From a virus (Duplodnaviria; Heunggongvirae; Uroviricota; Caudoviricetes), in the IMG/VR virus record IMGVR_UViG_2877291059_000002: 14,584 nucleotides of DNA. The stretch is one strand, 5' to 3'. The notes under the pieces were generated by a model. It saw only the letters and a program-made list of their open reading frames with translations, was not told the DNA's origin and made no database searches. The position numbers and the translations under genes are program-made. Shown here one piece after another: positions 1-7,812 of this stretch (position 1 is its first letter; every line of letters begins with the position of its first letter).

Positions 1-207
1 CAGAATGGTGCGCTCAAACTGCCCGGTTTTTCCGCGTTAATGCGAAAATAGGTGGAAAGTTCCATCGGACAGCGCACGCCTTTAGGCACATAAATAAACG
101 TACCGTCAGAGGCTACCGCCGCATTAAGTGCGGCAAAGAAGTTGTCATTCCCCGGCACCACGGTGCCGAGATATTTACGCACCAGCTCCGGGTGATCGTG
201 GATCGCC
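1..207 (-). CDS. sufB: Fe-S cluster assembly protein SufB, internal fragment; reading frame ends abruptly near 207 where prophage-end sequence begins
   Basis: Minus-strand translation of 1-207 gives [69 protein letters not shown], recognised from memory as SufB; an in-frame stop lies immediately upstream, consistent with an insertion junction. Confidence 0.7.
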
Positions 208-288
208 TAAAGCGAGCAAAATCATTTGATACCGTTTTGAATTTTTTTTGATACCACCCAAAACGGCACAACGAAAAATTATTTGATA
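208..288. other. Putative Mu-like prophage right terminus with three copies of an ATTTGATAC-like motif (candidate transposase-binding repeats)
   Basis: Lies between the sufB break and the mom stop; TTTGATACC at about 226 and 249 and TTTGATACT at about 281; terminal TAAAGCGAGCAAAA loosely resembles the Mu right end TGAAGCGGCGCACGAAAAA as recalled. Confidence 0.35.
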
Positions 289-1026
289 CTAATCGGGAGT
301 GCTTTTAGGGTATGGCTGAACCTTGAATAGCTTAGTATTTAGCCGCTTCCTTGCTCGCTTGTTCAGGAACCTGATGTAGCGATACTGATTAAATTTGTGC
401 ACCACGGCACGCTCTTTATTAGCCCGTAAATACACGCCTCGTTGTCCACCTCGCTTCATCGCGTTCATCGTTATCTCGTGATACCACTCACCATCCAGCT
501 CGTAGAATGTGCTTTCATGGCTGCCAATAAAATCAAAATTTGACGCCTGATACACAACGCCAGCACGTCCGCAGCGTTCGTCTGCAAAAGACTGAACCCA
601 CTCCACTGACGGATACAGTAACCTTATGGTTTTCAGTGCATAACTGATGGCCCGTGATTCAGAGTTGCGGGGCATGTTGTCGTGTAGCCACATGCGGTTC
701 AACTCCATATAGCCCCGGTTATCCGTTTCAAGCACGACACGACGACCTGAGTTGGGGTTAAGGGCATATCCCCACTGGAGAACGCCAACCAGATCGCGTC
801 CGCTGAATACTCCCAGGTGGAGGTAAGAGTTATTCACAAAACGGCGGGAATAGTGCTTTGTCTGAATAATTGTGCGGGCCAGCCAGCAGGATATGGTTTC
901 AACGTGCAGCTCCTTTGAACCATAGCCAACAATCTGGCCTTCATACTCAATAACACACGGTTTCGTCAGAATGCGTGATTTTTTCTCTTTTCCCACAATG
1001 TTTCTCCGTGGGATGCTCGCAGGCAT
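289..1026 (-). CDS. mom: Mom-like DNA modification protein (adenine modification, anti-restriction); true start uncertain
   Basis: 245-aa ORF whose 5' end overlaps the 3' end of com by 80 bp, as in the Mu com-mom operon; ATG at 1026, an in-frame GTG 10 codons downstream is an alternative start. Confidence 0.75.
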
Positions 1027-1135
1027 TCAGCATTATGATGTGACGTTTGCAACGCGGACACCTGATTTCAATGTGATCAAAGGAATCCGCCTTAAATAAC
1101 AGTTTGTTGCAGTTTTTACAGCGAATTGATTTCAT
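947..1135 (-). CDS. com: Com zinc-finger translational activator of mom
   Basis: 62-aa [16 protein letters not shown]...CPRCKRH with two CxxC pairs; AGGAGG ribosome-binding site upstream of ATG at 1135; sits immediately upstream of and overlapping mom. Confidence 0.85.
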
Positions 1136-1250
1136 CTCACCTCCTTTGCATCAATTCGCCACTATCTTAAAAAACATCGTGGGTTGAGTGTGGTTATTGG
1201 GGCATAATCGATCTATATTACCGATCGATTTGATTGATTCGATCGTCGTT
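1136..1250 (-). promoter_or_regulatory. com-mom regulatory region with a cluster of three GATC (Dam) sites
   Basis: GATC at 1210-1213, 1223-1226 and 1241-1244, just upstream of com on the minus strand and overlapping the gin 3' end; in Mu, three GATC sites upstream of the mom promoter mediate methylation-sensitive OxyR repression. Confidence 0.5.
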
Positions 1251-1811
1251 TTCTATATGTGTTCGTTTGGCGGGGTGTTTTTTATACAGCGTTGACAGGG
1301 CCACATCGTAGATCAATGCGACCTGCTTGCGGGGGATTCCTTGTGCTAATAAACGCCCGGCCTGCTCCCATTCCGCTTTGGTTAGTTTAGGTGGTCGCCC
1401 ACCGATACGGCCTTTATTTCTGGCAGCAGCAAGTCCAGCCATCGTTCTCTCGATGATTAGTTCTCGTTCCATCTCAGCCAGGGCACCCATAACGTGGAAG
1501 AAAAAACGCCCCATTGGAGATGACGTATCAATACTGTCAGTAAGACTGCGAAAATTAATCCCTCGCTCTCGTAATTCCCCTACGAGAGAAATCAAATGTT
1601 TCATGCTTCGCCCGAGGCGATCCAGTTTCCAGACAACCAGTGTGTCACCTTTTTGAAGACGCTTTAAAGCGCGTTTTAATCCAGGTCTGTCTGTCCTTGT
1701 TCCGCTTAATTTATCTTCAAATATTTGTTCACATCCTGCACAAACAAGAGCGTTTCGTTGCAGGTCTGTATTCTGGTCATTTGTTGATACCCTTACATAG
1801 CCAATCAGCAC
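1218..1811 (-). CDS. gin: Serine recombinase DNA invertase (Gin/Pin/Hin family)
   Basis: 197-aa ORF starting MLIGYVRVSTNDQNTDLQ (GTG start at 1811) with the resolvase/invertase catalytic N-terminus and a C-terminal DNA-binding region; adjacent to a gix-like site and to com-mom. Confidence 0.9.
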   Translation of the reverse strand: MLIGYVRVSTNDQNTDLQRNALVCAGCEQIFEDKLSGTRTDRPGLKRALKRLQKGDTLVVWKLDRLGRSMKHLISLVGELRERGINFRSLTDSIDTSSPMGRFFFHVMGALAEMERELIIERTMAGLAAARNKGRIGGRPPKLTKAEWEQAGRLLAQGIPRKQVALIYDVALSTLYKKHPAKRTHIENDDRINQIDR

Positions 1812-1865
1812 TCTGGATCTCCCGTTTAAAAACGCAAATCATGCCATGCAGGCCGGAAACAGCCA

Positions 1866-1891
1866 TTATCTAAAACCTCGGTTTACAGGAA
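1866..1891. other. gix-type recombination site for the Gin invertase
   Basis: TTATCTAAAACCTCGGTTTACAGGAA; reverse complement differs at one position from the Mu gix sequence as recalled; 55 bp upstream of the gin start. Confidence 0.7.
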
Positions 1892-2003
1892 ACGGTAAAT
1901 CAGGCTTCTGGCGCATTACAGAAAAACCAGAACGGCGCAGATATTCCAAGGAAAAGATACCTTCAACCAAAATATTGGTGCCTGTCGCGCATATAGCGCA
2001 TGG

Positions 2004-2245
2004 GTGGATATTGGTGGCGATAGTCAGGTCTGGACAACTGCGCAATTTATTTCGTGGCTGGAGAGTCAGGGGGCATTTAACCATCCTTACTGGATGTGCA
2101 AAGGCTCATGGGCTTATGCAAATAATAAGGTCATTACAGATACAGGTTGCGGAAATATTTGTCTTGCAGGTGCTGTTGTGGAAGTTACTGGCACTCGTGG
2201 CGCAATGACCATACGCGTTACCACGCCGGGCACGTCCAGCAGCTG
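2004..2245 (+). pseudogene. Possible remnant of an invertible G-segment tail-fibre gene, truncated by IS insertion
   Basis: ORF in the position expected for G-segment variable tail-fibre genes next to gix; runs into the IS terminal sequence at 2246; no motif recognised. Confidence 0.25.
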
Positions 2246-2639
2246 TGAGGTGTACTGGCAATAGCGGACACTACCATTTGTTCTTTTTTTAAGCACAGCC
2301 ATCTGATGATATTTTTCCCTGAAGGCTGCCGGGGAGATATTCCCCAGACGAGAGTGACGACGCTGACGATTGTAGAAAACTCTCAATGTATTCCCGTATT
2401 ACTGAGATGGCTTCATCCCGGTTAATTAAAACGATAGTGGCTCTGTGAGGTGTACTGGCAATAGCGGATACTACCATTTGTTCTTTTTTAAGCAGCCATC
2501 TGATGATATTTTTCCCTGAAGGCTGCCGGGGAGATATTCCCCAGACGAGAGTGACGACGCTGACGATTGTAGAAAATCTCAATGTATTCCCGTATTACTG
2601 AGGCCCGGCAGGTGGGCGCTGGCTCCTGAGCGCCATAAA
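2246..2639. repeat. Two tandem near-identical ~195-bp copies of the IS3-family right-end segment, followed by a third copy that continues into the element
   Basis: 2246-2445 and 2446-2639 are near-identical with a few substitutions or indels; copy 2 carries an extra internal deletion. Confidence 0.8.
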
Positions 2640-3160
2640 TGAGGTGTACTGGCAATAGCGGACACTACCATTTGTTCCATGGCGTAACCGACAATTTCGC
2701 ACGTATAAACATCTTTGACGCCGGCGAGATACAGCCATCCTTCCCGGGTGGCAACATACGTTATATCTGCGACCCAGACCTGATTAGGTGCTGTGGGCGT
2801 AAAGTTCTGATTCAGCAGATTCGGCGTAACCGGCAGATTGTGGTCAGAGTTTGTGGTCGCCCTGAACTTGCGTTTCTGCTTACAGTGCAGCCTCAGCTCC
2901 TTACGAAGACGTGCCAGTCTGTCACGACCGACGATAATTCCGTTATCTTCCAGCTCCGTCTGGAGCCGCCGGGTTCCATATGTTTCGCGAGTGCGGATAT
3001 GTGCCACCTTAATCTCCAGTTTTAGCCGCTCATCACTTTGTTTTCTGTCTGAGGGGGCATGCTGTACCCGGTCGTAATAACCGCTCCTCTGAGGGTTCAT
3101 GCTGTACCCGGTCGTAATAACCGCTCCTGGATACACCAGGTACCCGACACATCGCTTCAA
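2579..3160 (-). pseudogene. IS3-family transposase OrfB, N-terminal part with an internal deletion removing the catalytic DDE region
   Basis: 193-aa ORF matches the first 148 residues of the 6292-7263 OrfB, then jumps from EIVGYAM directly to IS-end-derived sequence. Confidence 0.7.
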
Positions 3161-3492
3161 CAGGGAATTGTTGTCGCCATTGTTCGACTAACGCGCATTT
3201 TTCAGCGACTCCTGGGCAAAATACGCTGTTGCTTTTTTTAATATATCTCGCTCAAGTCGTGCTTCATTTAAAACACATCGCTTCAATGGGAATTGTTGTC
3301 GACCATTGTTCGATTAACGCGTATTTTCTAGCGACTCCTGTGCAAAATACGCTGTTGCTTTTTTAATTATATCTCGCCCAAGGCGAGCCTCATTTAACGC
3401 CTTACGCAGTTGCAGAATTTCAGATTCCAGTTCAGCCACCGTGCGGGAACCAGGAGTACCGAGCCCTTTTCTGGCGGCGGTAACCCATTGTC

Positions 3493-3717
3493 CTAAAGGG
3501 CCTTCAGGAAGGGTATCGTCGGACGGTTGCCTGGCTCCTCTGGTGATGAGATGCTCCCCTCACTCACAACTGGCTGGATGAACTCCGCACCATAACCAGC
3601 TGTCGAAATCAGCGCACTACCATAAGGCTGCCACCCTTCCTTCAGTTTTTGAGTTATTCGTTTCGCAAGGTCTGACGGCGACGCCGCCCTGACAACATCA
3701 TAGTGTTTAAATGCCAT
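3493..3717 (-). CDS. Small hypothetical protein, copy 1; 3' end replaced by adjacent IS-derived sequence
   Basis: ATG at 3717 with a GGAGG ribosome-binding site; first 47 residues MAFKHYDVVRAASPSDLAKRITQKLKEGWQPYGSALISTAGYGAEFI shared with copy 2, then diverges. Confidence 0.3.
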   Translation of the reverse strand: MAFKHYDVVRAASPSDLAKRITQKLKEGWQPYGSALISTAGYGAEFIQPVVSEGSISSPEEPGNRPTIPFLKAL

Positions 3718-3898
3718 GAATCCTCCCGGCCGGGATAATATTGTGAGTAAAATAAGGAGCGGGCTGAAGTCCGGAAGTTACAGGACAATGGCAGAAGGGA
3801 GACTACAGCCCGCAATTCGAAAAAGGTCGCGCAGTTGCGCAGAGTGATTACTATGGGGTATTATTCGCCAGCTGAAATATTACTTCACGTTTCATTGT

Positions 3899-4123
3899 TT
3901 ATTCCTTGCCGCCCGCGTCTCCCAGCGCGGGCTTTTTTGTCCATAAGAAAGCCCCTCCGGAGAGGGGCTGGAGAGGTGGCGCGATGAACTCCGCACCATA
4001 ACCAGCTGTCGAAATCAGCGCACTACCATAAGGCTGCCACCCTTCCTTCAGTTTTTGAGTTATTCGTTTCGCAAGGTCTGACGGCGACGCCACCCTGACA
4101 ACATCATAGTGTTTAAATGCCAT
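3899..4123 (-). CDS. Small hypothetical protein, copy 2; C-terminal extension reads through terminator hairpins, so the native 3' end is probably missing
   Basis: ATG at 4123 preceded by GGGAGG; conserved 47-residue N-terminus; no family recognised. Confidence 0.35.
   Translation of the reverse strand: MAFKHYDVVRVASPSDLAKRITQKLKEGWQPYGSALISTAGYGAEFIAPPLQPLSGGAFLWTKKPALGDAGGKE
3911..3938 (+). terminator. Intrinsic terminator-like hairpin (GCCCGCG/CGCGGGC stem, T6 tail), copy 1 of the duplicated unit
   Basis: 7-bp GC stem, 8-nt loop, followed by TTTTTT. Confidence 0.5.
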
Positions 4124-4316
4124 GAATCCTCCCGGCCGGGATAATATTGTGAGTAAAATAAGGAGCGGGCTGAAGTCCGGAAGTTACAGGACAATGGCAG
4201 AAGGGAGACTACAGCCCGCAATTCGAAAAAGGTCGCGCAGTTGCGCAGAGTGATTACTATGGGGTATTATTCGCCAGCTGAAATATTACTTCACGTTTCA
4301 TTGTTTATTCCTTGCC

Positions 4317-4344
4317 GCCCGCGTCTCCCAGCGCGGGCTTTTTT
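4317..4344 (+). terminator. Intrinsic terminator-like hairpin, copy 2 of the duplicated unit
   Basis: Identical stem-loop plus T6 exactly 406 bp downstream of copy 1. Confidence 0.5.
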
Positions 4345-4608
4345 GTCCATAAGAAAGCCCCTCCGGAGAGGGGCTGGAGAGTGGCGCGATGTGCCATTGT
4401 ATGGTGCCGGGTGCCTCCCGGTGAGTTCAGCCCGGTGCCACTAAACCCGCGTCATTCTCGTTTTGATAATCAGAGATTATACCGTCACCAGTCGCCCCTC
4501 CGCTCAGGGGGATTCACCATGCAGTTTTTTCTAACAAATTCTCATCCGGGCAGACAACATTCAACTGACTTAATTGTGAGGTATGTAACATTCCTGTTGA
4601 ACGGATAC

Positions 4609-4638
4609 AAAAAAAGCCAGCCACCAGGGGAGGCTGGC
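4609..4638 (-). terminator. Minus-strand intrinsic terminator candidate
   Basis: GCCAGCC/GGCTGGC stem with a 9-nt loop, followed on the minus strand by a 7-U run (plus-strand A7 at 4609-4615). Confidence 0.45.
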
Positions 4639-4818
4639 AAACTCGTAGAGCAAAATGCTGTTACGCAAACTTCGTTACAGGGTTATCCTGCAATACTTAA
4701 AATATACAATATTTAGAAAACTAATAGTGCCATATGAGATTTTTAAGATTTTGTTATTAATTGCGGTCGCACCTTCCTTTCTGTGTACTTTCCGTATAGC
4801 TCACAGGATTCTGGGTAC

Positions 4819-4841
4819 AAAAAAACCCGCGCATCGGCGGG
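4819..4841 (-). terminator. Minus-strand intrinsic terminator candidate
   Basis: CCCGC/GCGGG stem with a 6-nt loop, followed on the minus strand by a 7-U run (plus-strand A7 at 4819-4825). Confidence 0.4.
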
Positions 4842-5125
4842 TTCGGCTGCGTGGCAATGTAACCACTCTTATCATGATATGCAGATTTTTACGTACGTAA
4901 AATACTTTTTTGGCATCCCACTTTATTCAGGTATGGAATCAAACAAGAGGACCGGGGTTCTACGGCGCTTTACACCCCCTCGGGCGAGGATTTTCGAGCT
5001 CTTTTTTTACCACATAGCAATGTATTCAGTCGGCGTTGTTTGGGGCTTCTGCATGGACGACACCAGCTTTGCGGCCTTTTCTTATTCCCACAAATTCTGA
5101 ATCCGAATTTTTTCTCAATTTAGTT

Positions 5126-5887
5126 GGTGATGCTTCCAATTAGTAGAACATGTGTTTTTCAATAAACGTCCCGATGACTTTTTCGTGGATCTCTACTGAA
5201 CGCGAGAAGCAGATTGTTTTACGAGCCAAGCGCTTAATGCGGGTGCGCAGCGTCAGGTTATTGCGCTCAATCCGTTGGGTGAATATTTTGATGCTTATCC
5301 TTCGGCACCTCCCGGCGTTGGTGATGCTTCCAATTAGTAGAACATGTGTTTTTCAATAAACGTCCCGATGACTTTTTCGTGGATCTCTACTGAACGCGAG
5401 AAGCAGATTGTTTTACGAGCCAAGCGCTTAATGCGGGTGCGCAGCGTCAGGTTATTGCGCTCAATCCGTTGGGTGAATATTTTTCCGGTCAGATGCTTAT
5501 CCTTCGGCACCTCCCGGCCATAGCTGCCCCAGTCGTCGCTGGTGATCATGCCGATGTTGAATGGCGTAAGTGAGTTTTTTAAAGTCCGGATGACGGTGTT
5601 AATGCCAATTTTCAGTGTCCTGGCGGTATCGCGAACCCCGGCGCCATTGAAGGCCATTTCAGTGATCAGCTCTTTAATGCCCGGCTTACGGGCCTCATAA
5701 GTGTAAGTGAGCTGAAAAACACGCGGTGGCAGTCACGGCAGCGAAATCTGTCATGGCCTTTAGGGTTCTGACCATGGCGGTAGACCTGTGCAGACTGACA
5801 ACGAGGACAATGAATGTTAACGCTGGCCATGAAAGAACCTCAAAAGCCCGCATTATACATCAGATTCAACTAATTAGAGGCATCACC
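5126..5887 (-). mobile_element. Divergent IS1-family element remnant with a ~200-bp internal deletion and a tandem duplication of its first 194 bp
   Basis: Imperfect terminal inverted repeats GGTGATGCTTCCAATTAGTAG (at 5126 and again at 5320) and GGTGATGCCTCTAATTAGTTG (reverse complement, ending at 5887); InsA-like and InsB-like coding sequence on the minus strand. Confidence 0.75.
5334..5657 (-). pseudogene. IS1-family InsA C-terminus fused to InsB C-terminal part (InsB N-terminal ~100 residues deleted)
   Basis: MAFNGAGVRDTARTLKIGINTVIRTLKNS resembles the IS1 InsA C-terminus, followed by ...KIFTQRIERNNLTLRTRIKRLARK... resembling the IS1 InsB C-terminus; the upstream InsA N-terminus is frameshifted. 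Confidence 0.7.
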
Positions 5888-5896
5888 CCGTATTCC

Positions 5897-7151
5897 TGAG
5901 TTTAACGGACACTCCTTCCTGAAATAGAATGGCATCAGAAGGAGCTAATAATGAGCAGAAAAACCCAACGTTACTCTAAAGAGTTCAAAGCCGAAGCTGT
6001 CAGAACGGTTCTTGAAAATCAACTTTCGATCAGTGAAGGCGCTTCCCGATTATCCCTTCCTGAAGGCCCTTTAGGACACCTGAGTTTAACGGACACTCCT
6101 TCCTGAAATAGAATGGCATCAGAAGGAGCTAATAATGAGCAGAAAAACCCAACGTTACTCTAAAGAGTTCAAAGCCGAAGCTGTCAGAACGGTTCTTGAA
6201 AATCAACTTTCGATCAGTGAAGGCGCTTCCCGATTATCCCTTCCTGAAGGCCCTTTAGGACAATGGGTACAACAATTCCCATTGAAGCGATGTGTTCGGG
6301 TACCTGGTGTATCCAGGAGCGGTTATTACGACCGGGTACAGCATGAACCCTCAGAGGAGCGGTTATTACGACCGGGTACAGCATGCCCCCTCAGACAGAA
6401 AACAAAGTGATGAGCGGCTAAAACTGGAGATTAAGGTGGCACATATCCGCACTCGCGAAACATATGGAACCCGGCGGCTCCAGACGGAGCTGGAAGATAA
6501 CGGAATTATCGTCGGTCGTGACAGACTGGCACGTCTTCGTAAGGAGCTGAGGCTGCACTGTAAGCAGAAACGCAAGTTCAGGGCGACCACAAACTCTGAC
6601 CACAATCTGCCGGTTACGCCGAATCTGCTGAATCAGAACTTTACGCCCACAGCACCTAATCAGGTCTGGGTCGCAGATATAACGTATGTTGCCACCCGGG
6701 AAGGATGGCTGTATCTCGCCGGCGTCAAAGATGTTTATACGTGCGAAATTGTCGGTTACGCCATGGGAGAGCGCATGACGAAAGAGTTGACGGGGAAAGC
6801 CCTGTTTATGGCGCTCAGGAGCCAGCGCCCACCTGCCGGGCTAATCCACCACACCGATCGAGGTTCACAGTACTGCGCATACGATTACCGGGTCATACAG
6901 GAGCAGTCTGGTCTGAAAACATCAATGTCGCGTAAAGGTAACTGTTACGACAACGCTCCGATGGAAAGCTTCTGGGGAACGCTGAAAAATGAAAGCCTGA
7001 GCCACTATCGTTTTAAGAGCCGGGATGAGGCCATCTCAGTAATACGGGAATACATTGAGATTTTCTACAATCGTCATCAGGGAAAAATATCATCAGATGG
7101 CTGCTTAAAAAAAGAACAAATGGTAGTGTCCGCTATTGCCAGTACACCTCA
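5897..7151 (+). mobile_element. IS3-family (IS600-like) element, plus orientation, with internal tandem duplications and deletions
   Basis: Ends TGAGTTTAACGGACAC (5897) and ...GCCAGTACACCTCA (7151); the left-end/orfA 5' segment of ~190 bp is duplicated (5886-6073 and 6076-6263). Confidence 0.8.
6135..6410 (+). pseudogene. IS3-family OrfA (HTH) with a deletion of its leucine-zipper region, fused in frame to downstream sequence
   Basis: MSRKTQRYSKEFKAEAVRTVLENQLSISEGASRLSLPEG recognised as an IS600-like OrfA N-terminus; the C-terminal part present in the minus-strand copy (3160-3490) is absent here. Confidence 0.6.
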
Positions 7152-7263
7152 GATTATCGCCAACCAGATCCGAACTCCCCATGATGGATGCGAGCTGCTC
7201 CTCGTTGTAATCCCGCCCAAATACGGTATTACTGGTTTTTACGCAAGCCAGATCAGGCATTGA
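6292..7263 (+). pseudogene. IS3-family transposase OrfB (DDE integrase fold) with a ~47-bp deletion near the 3' end causing read-through past the IS terminus
   Basis: Retroviral-integrase-like core (HTDRGSQY...CYDNAPMESFWGTLKNE); compared with the copy at 2246-2445, sequence after FYNR is deleted, so the ORF runs out of the element. Confidence 0.7.
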
Positions 7264-7812
7264 GGGGGCAAAAAACTCGTAATCACTCAGATCACCACGC
7301 TGGATAAGCTCACGAATCGTTGTAGGCTTGATCAGGCATTCGTAGTACTTGCCCATCCAGGCCGCGAACGGGGTACCGGAAAGCCCAAGAACCCTGATGT
7401 CTTTGTCCCGGATAACCTCAAGTAACGCACGGCGCTTCATGTGTGCTTCATCGATGATCAGCAGATCGATATTGTCAGGGAACTCACGACGGATCAGCGT
7501 GTCAGCGCTGGCAATCTGAATCAGTCGTGACGGGTCATAGTTAGGGTGATCACGCCATACAAAACTGATTTCTTCCCACGGCAAACCGTATTCGGTGAAA
7601 CGCTCTGCTGTCTGGTTCAGCAGGATTGTGTACGGGCAAACGAACATCACCCGCATACCACGTTCAACCATTCCGGCTGTGACGAATGCTGCAAGACCAG
7701 TTTTTCCAGAGCCAGTGAGTGCGTACATCAGGTACGTGCGATGCTGTTTCCACTCGTGCCGCAGCTGGTTTAAACCGCGCTCCTGTGCAAAGTTTGGGGT
7801 GATTTTCAGCAT
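7105..7812 (-). CDS. Phage SF2-type helicase, N-terminal ~220 residues only; C-terminus truncated by the IS insertion at 7151/7152
   Basis: Walker A LTGSGKTG and DEAH-like LLIIDEAH motifs; the last ~15 codons of the ORF are IS-derived. Confidence 0.7.
   Translation of the reverse strand: MLKITPNFAQERGLNQLRHEWKQHRTYLMYALTGSGKTGLAAFVTAGMVERGMRVMFVCPYTILLNQTAERFTEYGLPWEEISFVWRDHPNYDPSRLIQIASADTLIRREFPDNIDLLIIDEAHMKRRALLEVIRDKDIRVLGLSGTPFAAWMGKYYECLIKPTTIRELIQRGDLSDYEFFAPSMPDLACVKTSNTVFGRDYNEEQLASIMGSSDLVGDNLRCTGNSGHYHLFFF

Follow-up and report, generated by a model that had tools for sequence, protein, structure and literature searches.

A Mu-type phage right end in sufB of Shigella dysenteriae type 1, cut off by IS600

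Mu-type right ends and the locus in Shigella dysenteriae

The closest described systems include the transposable phages Mu (AF083977), D108 (GQ357916) and SfMu. In Mu, the Com protein opens a stem-loop that hides the start of mom, and the mom region is under Dam/OxyR control and carries a site for the activator C, the phage protein that mom transcription requires. The canonical ends of Mu and D108 carry a MuA-binding consensus that contains RCGAAAR, and their termini read 5'-TG...CA-3'. The left end of Mu is TGTATTGATTCACTTGAAG..., and the rule for Mu is a CA-3' terminus with a 5-bp target duplication. Mu-like remnants (SfMu) are common in S. flexneri, according to a report whose text does not refer to S. 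dysenteriae (PMC4406740).

The stretch of DNA analysed here (the window, 14,584 nt in all) is 100% identical to S. dysenteriae type 1 (SD1) strain Sd1617 (CP006736). Strain Sd197 (CP000034) is 99.8% identical to window 1-2243 and contains the same junction, the two strains differing at 4 positions across 2.2 kb. Sd197 comes from China in the 1950s and Sd1617 from Guatemala in 1968. The start of the window is very probably a right-end stump, about 2 kb long, of a Mu-type phage of a hybrid lineage described below, inserted in sufB and truncated by IS600. Such an insertion and truncation in SD1 is ordinary genome decay.

An earlier note on this DNA had described a transposable Mu-type right end within sufB, with mom, com and gin in the Mu order, and the junction and the Pfam domains bear this description out. 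All of the elements that it listed (sufB, the end repeats, mom, com, the GATC cluster and gin) were found where it had placed them. Its list was incomplete, however, in that the gix site and the S' fragment were overlooked and the truncating element was not named as IS600. The features are as follows.

1-207, minus strand: 3' part of sufB (codons 172 to about 240 of 495), a pseudogene that continues past base 1 into sufCDSE
208-304, minus strand: attR, the right end of the hybrid Muvirus lineage, with terminus T208; neither the Mu nor the D108 end
225-232, 247-254 and 282-289, plus strand: TTTGATAC repeat cores, 18, 40 and 75 nt from the terminus
289-1026, minus strand: mom, full length, 245 aa, the DNA adenine hypermodification enzyme (Pfam Mom, E = 4e-75)
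947-1135, minus strand: com, 62 aa, the zinc-ribbon translational activator of mom (Pfam Zn_ribbon_Com), overlapping mom by 80 nt
991-1013, minus strand: predicted stem-loop over the mom GUG start (996-994), hairpin CCCACGGAGAAACAUUGUGGG
1136-1260, minus strand: promoter and other control sequences of mom, including a GATC cluster (1210, 1223 and 1241, three sites in 35 bp)
1218-1811, minus strand: gin, 197 aa, the serine invertase of the G segment (Pfam Resolvase and HTH_7)
1866-1891, plus strand: gix site, on the gin side of the G segment, differing from Mu at 1 position
1892-2243, plus strand: truncated S' tail-fibre variable gene (5' piece), in which the S' frame can be read from about 1950
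2244-2640, no strand assigned: start of the IS600 that cuts off the phage, present as repeated end fragments in Sd1617 and as one intact IS600 in Sd197

The mom-com-gin arm

The arm has the same order and orientation as the attR-mom-com-gin-G segment of Mu, to which it is 96.3% identical in nucleotides over 305-2243, and its proteins are 96-100% identical to those of Mu and D108. SfMu mom-com-gin is 98% identical to 305-1906. For the proteins, D108 is the closest named phage: its Gin is identical (197/197, as against 192/193 for Mu Gin), its Mom has the same 245-aa form (237/245 residues matching, as against 227/231 for Mu), and its Com, like that of Mu, matches at 61 of the 62 residues. Mom is annotated 14 aa longer here than in Mu, by 10 residues at the N-terminus and 4 at the C-terminus. 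No NCBIfam model matched Mom or Com. The Mom residues described as essential or important (W48, H58, Y59, R111, S124, D149, R151, Y159 and W181; PMC13219725) are all retained.

The control elements of mom appear to be retained as well, to judge from the three-GATC cluster and the predicted stem-loop at the start. Over 985-1140 (156 nt), where com and the translation of mom begin, there is no difference from Mu or D108, and the stretch of about 130 nt with the promoter and the GATC sites shows 2 differences from Mu. The succession read earlier, of mom, an overlapping com, a GATC cluster and gin, is upheld by the domains, the 80-nt overlap, the three sites and the identity to D108. Since mom transcription in Mu needs the C activator, and neither a C gene nor other Mu DNA is present in the window, mom is probably silent; a C-type activator could, however, come from another prophage elsewhere in the genome.

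The gix site aligns with the G-segment border of Mu and D108 and matches the second inverted repeat of a complete relative (L017, 32497-32537). There is no second gix copy in the window. With a single gix and its partner gone, inversion is impossible, and there is therefore nothing here for Gin to invert. The S' piece is identified from the annotated S' or tail-fibre genes of D108, Mu and E. coli prophages; in Sd1617 it contains one more A, at 1948, and is missing 231 bp present in Sd197.

By way of the gix site and the S' fragment, phage DNA continues beyond gin to about 2243.

The sufB junction and the terminal 97 bp

E. coli sufB matches window 1-208 at 98.6% identity, with a single gap, in 5,419 of 5,426 complete genomes. 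Translation of the minus strand from 206 to 1 yields the SufB sequence, and then the frame is lost through the deletion of one base from the T-run at 27-31. The deletion is also present in Sd197, which is without difference from Sd1617 over 1-207. A functional SufB would have 495 uninterrupted codons downstream of sufA; here, in addition to the frameshift, codons 1-171 (about the first third) are absent from the window, which holds no other suf DNA. The remnant is followed by sufC, sufD, sufS and sufE (loci L007 and L008). It is thus likely that sufB is dead and that sufCDSE are severed from the sufA promoter. A search of the literature on S. dysenteriae or Shigella pseudogenes for sufB returned nothing relevant.

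The junction between sufB and the phage reads GGATCGCCTAAAGCGAGCAAAATC. Six insertions of this phage end, each independent of the others, have TAAAGCG(A/C)GC in common, and the base preceding the T is variable. Because the six junctions agree from the T onward and differ before it, T208 belongs to the phage and sufB ends at 207. This comparison agrees with the earlier reading that the SufB-like coding sequence on the minus strand ends at 207, and that a transposable phage, whose end begins at 208, interrupts the suf gene. That the junction is an assembly chimera rather than a real insertion is very improbable. The Sd1617 assembly does have faults nearby, with tandem duplicates of IS fragments at 100% identity, and its suf genes are split relative to Sd197, but the junction is identical base for base in the independently sequenced Sd197, and the break coincides exactly with the terminus of the phage as set by the five other insertions.

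The Suf iron-sulfur assembly operon is therefore broken in at least two SD1 strains, decades and continents apart. This may bear on how SD1 handles iron limitation and oxidative stress, and adds another case in which mobile elements have caused gene loss in SD1.

The first base of homology is 305 for Mu and 275 for D108, which extends 30 bp beyond Mu; SfMu homology also ends at 305, as with Mu, so that the right end of SfMu is of another type. An alignment of the terminal 97 bp (208-304) with the Mu right end gave no similarity. The general layout is comparable, the Mu end likewise having three repeats in its last 80 bp or so, but the last 97 bp are unrelated, the repeats being of TTTGATAC type rather than CGAAA type and the terminus being TA-3' rather than CA-3'. 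Neither RCGAAAR repeats nor a TG...CA terminus is present. TTTGATAC occurs exactly 3 times in the 14.6-kb window, always on the plus strand, as against 0.45 expected by chance. These three direct repeats are presumed to be transposase-binding sites equivalent to R1-R3 of Mu. The end region of about 80 bp with repeated motifs that had been noted earlier is therefore real, while the comparison with the ends of Mu and D108 proposed for it disclosed no likeness to Mu.

The 97 bp match instead the ends of 11 E. coli prophages at 96-99% identity, with each match beginning at query base 1. The lineage is rare: besides the Yersinia phages vB_YpM_5 and vB_YpM_6, it is represented by prophages in 11 of the 5,426 complete E. 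coli genomes. The repeat offsets of 18, 40 and 75 are those of the prophage of strain O111:H2 12A, and the same repeats stand inverted at the left ends of the relatives with offsets of 18, 122 and 164, the terminal offset of 18 nt being mirrored. The termini are TA in all six right junctions and in all five left junctions of the relatives. The three complete relatives with the same end are each flanked by a 4-bp target duplication (CGCG, AGCC and TAAG), as against the 5 bp that the earlier note had suggested looking for. By analogy, the duplication here is predicted to be CGCC (204-207), and the other junction, if present, is predicted to join the left end to ...CGCC-TCGCCAAAGG in the orientation of the window.

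A canonical Mu or D108 right end, which would carry MuA-binding sites and be flanked by a 5-bp duplication, is thus very improbable here. Such a reading gains from mom, com, gin and S', which are 96-97% identical to Mu and D108, and from a Gin that is the D108 Gin. It is contradicted, however, by the limits of homology at 305 and 275, by the missing alignment and the missing CGAAA sites in the terminal 97 bp, and by TA in the place of CA. In D108, moreover, the extra gene 56 and Mu-type transposase sites lie between mom and the end, whereas here gene 56 is missing and 81 bp lie between the mom stop and the phage terminus. The homology limits and the failed alignment refute a canonical Mu or D108 end for the terminal 97 bp.

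The hybrid lineage and the history of the stump

Homology to the Mu-like stretch, running from 208 to 2240-2243, is found in E. coli prophages at unrelated loci (ppsR, glpT, mscM and an SDR gene). The entire stump from 208 onward is 97-98% identical to vB_YpM_5, vB_YpM_6 and the O111:H2 12A prophage, which have the same end repeats. These are complete elements of 37 kb with both ends and a transposase, whereas the window holds the last 2 kb, and in the region of the first repeat one base differs (GCGAGC here, GCGCGC in the vB_YpM_5-type relatives). In the complete members examined, the left end, the repressor, ner, most of the transposase and the right end are all replaced relative to Mu. The left-end sequence of the lineage is TATAGAGAGGTAAATYATTTGATAC.

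The O111:H2 12A prophage, for example, is 37,205 bp long and inserted in ppsR, and its nucleotide homology to Mu begins 93 nt ahead of the transposase stop and ends 97 bp short of the right terminus. Except for an identical tail of about 30 aa, its transposase has 25% identity to MuA; it is 99% identical to the transposases of vB_YpM_5 and vB_YpM_6, and 43% identical to that of the Haemophilus phage SuMu. The ends of the SuMu record include host flanks, and the repeats there are of a different type, TTTTGCATA. In the paper on the Yersinia phages, they are termed Mu-like and the transposase is mentioned only in passing (PMC10434027).

The prophage in sufB would belong to this lineage, judging from the 97 bp of right end at 96-99% identity; the transposase and left end of its own element are absent from the window. 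The 97-bp end may be a fossil of a Mu relative whose transposition machinery, with TA-3' cuts and 4-bp duplications, was swapped as one unit, a reading that we consider about evenly balanced between right and wrong. The same even balance applies to the unit as comprising both ends, the repressor, ner and all of the transposase except its last 30 or so residues. No description of such a swap among Mu relatives was found in the literature examined. If true, it would be a natural example of a transposase and its end specificity being inherited together and exchanged jointly. This is a modest point for phage biology, and it opens no long-standing question.

The following order of events may be proposed. 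A Mu-type phage would have inserted in sufB of an SD1 ancestor, adjoining codon 172, with its right end facing the 3' part of sufB. Its genome would have been Mu/D108-like from the last 93 nt or so of the transposase gene through mom, while the left end, the repressor, ner, most of the transposase and the last 97 bp would have derived from a SuMu-like transposition module, the TTTGATAC repeats at 225, 247 and 282 serving as right-end binding sites for the SuMu-like transposase. After the phage insertion, IS600 would have entered the S' tail-fibre gene, and a deletion or inversion mediated by IS600 would have fused the stump to a lambdoid prophage remnant, removing or displacing about 35 kb of phage together with the first 172 codons of sufB.

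That the phage gives way to IS elements after about 2 kb, as had been claimed earlier, is confirmed by the extent of the homology. Annotated IS600 shares 99.4% identity with the intact copy in Sd197 (L007, 7285-8556). Because the assembly of the IS region of Sd1617 is unreliable, with duplicated IS fragments and split genes, the exact boundary with IS600 at 2241-2246 may be artefactual. Beyond IS600 lies unrelated lambdoid prophage DNA, as would be expected from recombination between distant IS copies. It is possible, if somewhat doubtful, that the missing 35 kb and the 5' part of sufB were moved elsewhere by an inversion between IS600 copies rather than deleted. As cited in PMC7819885, Yang et al. 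(2005) drew attention to IS elements as a probable cause of rearrangements in Shigella genomes, with Sd197 the richest in them. Among called proteins, a search with SufB residues 1-172 returned frameshifted or contig-end fragments only, none of them ending at residue 172 and fused to a phage left end. A scan of species-representative genomes for the left-end sequence AGAGGTAAATYATTTGATACTG gave three matches in unrelated AT-rich gut bacteria, read as chance, and none in any Escherichia or Shigella record.

With the IS600-truncated stump taken as ordinary decay, it may still be asked whether what is left was retained as useful, with Gin acting in trans, Mom acting on host DNA, or gin/mom transcription driving sufCDSE. 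The frames of mom, com and gin and the control elements are intact while the flanking S' and sufB are both frameshifted, and mom is directed at sufB'-sufCDSE with no terminator-like site from the mom stop to base 1. Nevertheless, a retained function is improbable. The S' frameshift at 1948 is limited to the unreliable Sd1617 assembly, the window is without the activator gene C, one gix site is left, and 1.5 kb is expected by chance to stay intact over a short evolutionary time. Since the strains differ at the 4 positions given above, their comparison has no power to detect selection. In addition, the sufS of Sd197, called at 329 aa, is apparently short, and this speaks against maintenance of the suf operon.

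A neighbouring lambdoid remnant has been described as 'Region 15', with cI, cro and a methylase, in an account that mentions neither Mu nor suf (PMC7819885). The possibility that the window is the Stx prophage region of SD1 was rejected, the same source locating that region between sapC and ychK, so that the window contains another lambdoid remnant. In this remnant, an ORF with an Eco57I-type methylase domain (9775-11046) adjoins an endonuclease of the BsuBI/PstI family (11294-12247), and the earlier suggestion of a second DNA-modification system besides Mom is thus substantiated.

The junction in sufB

The remnant, or stump, considered here is the right-hand end of a Mu-type transposable phage within sufB. 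The earlier note had described it as a Mu-like right-end remnant (mom-com-gin) inserted in sufB. This observation is confirmed as a whole, and its interpretation holds in outline, except that the identity of the end was wrong and the extent of the remnant incomplete. The features of the region are:

up to 207, minus strand: 3' part of sufB (E. coli sufB match; minus-strand translation)
289-1026, minus strand: mom, 245 aa
996-994 (GUG), minus strand: predicted hairpin over the mom GUG
947-1135, minus strand: com, 62 aa
1210, 1223, 1241: GATC sites, promoter region
1218-1811, minus strand: gin, 197 aa
1866-1891: gix site of the G segment, one mismatch to Mu

Among the 5,426 complete E. coli genomes, 5,419 carry a sufB that matches positions 1-208 at 98.6%. 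This match corresponds in E. coli 118UI to codons 171-240 of the 495-codon gene, with sufC, sufD and the other genes of the operon downstream; sufCD and the following suf genes also adjoin the sufB remnant in both Shigella loci (strains Sd197 and Sd1617). No further suf DNA occurs elsewhere in the 14,584-nt window. From 206 the minus strand translates as SufB as far as ...RINAEK, where the frame is lost through the absence of one T from the run at 27-31. Sd197 and Sd1617 are identical in this stretch, so the deletion is genuine and does not stem from an error in Sd1617. sufB is dead, and sufCDSE would be cut off from their promoter.

The BLAST match reaches 208 because E. coli sufB also carries a T there. 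Six independent junctions of the same phage end were compared: the one in sufB, those of E. coli prophages lying in ppsR, glpT, mscM and an SDR gene, and that in the circularised vB_YpM_5 record. TAAAGCG(A/C)GCAAAATCATTTGATAC is common to all six, and the base ahead of the terminal T is not conserved (c, g, t, t, c, a). Therefore, T208 is the phage terminus and sufB stops at 207, as the earlier note had estimated.

The remainder of the suf operon beyond base 1 of the window (Sd197 and Sd1617 loci L007, L008 11027-15657) also looks decayed: the sufS call of Sd197 is 329 aa long and preceded by a gap, and sufD, sufS and sufE of Sd1617 are each in pieces, part of which may be sequencing error.

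The phage end and its lineage

The end had been taken as the right end of Mu, which does not stand. Megablast homology begins only at 305 for Mu and at 275 for D108, and the end region shows no similarity to the Mu right end when the two are aligned directly. Homology begins at 208 for the Yersinia phages vB_YpM_5, vB_YpM_6 and Tongde and some E. coli prophages. Of the 5,426 complete E. coli genomes, only 11 contain the segment 208-300, all matches beginning at query base 1.

The window contains TTTGATAC three times in all, on one strand and within 65 bp (0.45 expected by chance), and relatives with both ends carry three copies at the left end in inverted orientation. The core offsets from the terminus are 18, 40 and 75 at the right end and 18, 122 and 164 at the left end of the relatives, the first repeat being equally far from both termini. 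By reading of the Mu end sequences, this layout resembles that of R1-R3 and L1-L3. The left-end spacer between repeats 1 and 2 (L006, a hybrid-lineage locus, 2885-2960), CCGGGAGGAAAGTGGATTAAACGGGATTTGATGGGAT, resembles by eye the Mu spacer CCGGGAGGACATTGGATTATTCGGGATCTGATGGGAT (Mu 25-100, L016), the repeats themselves being unlike.

The relatives form a hybrid lineage, of which the E. coli O111:H2 12A prophage (37,205 bp) is complete. Its Mu nucleotide homology, at 99.2% identity, starts 93 nt ahead of the transposase stop codon and stops 97 bp short of the right terminus. The transposase is 25% identical to MuA, save for an identical tail of ~30 residues, and has no Pfam match to the Mu DDE_2 or I-gamma domains; its identity is 99% to the proteins of vB_YpM_5 and vB_YpM_6, and 43% to the SuMu transposase. 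The lineage is a module swap. Judged solely by its 97-bp end, the Shigella stump would belong to it.

Elements of the lineage start with TA at both ends, and target duplications of 4 bp are found in three complete relatives:

CGCG, ppsR: verified against intact ppsR
AGCC, glpT: the 4-bp overlap restores the reading frame ...LLCGWMSDKV
TAAG, mscM

On the model of these relatives, the duplication expected at sufB would be CGCC (204-207).

Another complete relative, in E. coli FDAARGOS_1059 (NZ_CP066032.1), is bordered on each side by a different truncated gene, on the right one for an SDR oxidoreductase and on the left one for an ABC-transporter permease beside ycjO, which suggests phage-mediated adjacent deletion or rearrangement. 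In the Stx-converting phages LC727895.1 and LC727881.1, the transposase of an 'inserted Mu-like phage' is 80% identical to that of the hybrid lineage; therefore, further variants of the transposition module exist in E. coli.

Phage genes and truncation by IS600

mom, com and gin are intact. Gin is identical to that of D108, Com differs from that of Mu by one residue, and Mom shares 237/245 residues with D108 and 227/231 with Mu. Mom retains W48, H58, Y59, R111, S124, D149, R151, Y159 and W181, all essential or important (PMC13219725). The 156-nt stretch covering both the com and the mom start, predicted hairpin included, is identical in the stump, Mu and D108, and the mom promoter region with the GATC sites differs from Mu at two positions. 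In Mu, Com opens the hairpin over the mom start, Dam methylation of the GATC sites blocks OxyR repression, and mom transcription requires the phage C protein. Since the gene for activator C is absent from the window, mom is most likely silent in the stump.

Of the extent described earlier, mom-com-gin stands, but the phage does not end at gin: homology runs on past gix into the tail-fibre variable gene S', as far as 2240-2243. S' and gin diverge as in Mu G(+). Only a single gix copy is left in the window, and therefore Gin lacks a local substrate. The S' fragment is 231 bp longer in Sd197 than in Sd1617 and is followed there by an intact IS600 (99.4% identity to annotated copies). Sd1617 lacks these 231 bp, has an additional A at 1948, and carries the IS600 end as three fragments of ~200 bp (at 2245, 2445 and 2640). 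Its IS region (2244-6400) contains tandem IS duplicates of 99-100% identity (406 bp x2 at 3577-4391, 194 bp x1.9 at 5123-5483, 184 bp x2 at 5895-6262), where IS600 and IS1 are each present as single intact copies in Sd197. These peculiarities of Sd1617 are probably assembly artefacts (repeat misassembly).

Past the IS elements lies lambdoid DNA with a helicase fragment, cI, a methylase and a PstI-family endonuclease; therefore, IS600 marks a rearrangement or deletion and not a simple insertion. In the order that we infer, the phage would have transposed into sufB, IS600 would have inserted in S', and an IS600-mediated deletion or inversion would have eliminated or relocated the remaining 35 kb along with the first third of sufB.

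Occurrence in strains and the lambdoid remnant

Only two chromosomes on record encode exactly the Mom protein of 289-1026, CP006736.1 (S. dysenteriae type 1 strain Sd1617, Guatemala, 1968) and CP000034.1 (S. dysenteriae type 1 strain Sd197, China, 1950s) (PMC7819885). The former is 100% identical to the window across the 11,026 bases compared, and the latter 99.8% across 1-2243. The two strains show just four differences in the whole 2.2 kb, so the intactness of the genes is uninformative on selection. The S. dysenteriae and Shigella papers that were searched contain no mention of the sufB insertion of S. dysenteriae type 1. The stump is a case of ordinary prophage and IS decay within a genome already published, and its non-Mu transposition end is the one detail of modest interest.

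The lambdoid remnant comprises:

7105-7812: DEAD/ResIII helicase, truncated
9022-9735: cI-like repressor
within 9775-12247: ORF with Eco57I-type methylase domain, 423 aa (longer in Sd197)
within 9775-12247, after the methylase ORF: BsuBI/PstI-family restriction endonuclease, 317 aa

The methylase-endonuclease block is also found in many E. coli Stx phages. At 13077-13112 the remnant contains a perfect 7-nt tandem repeat, ACCAATC x5.1.
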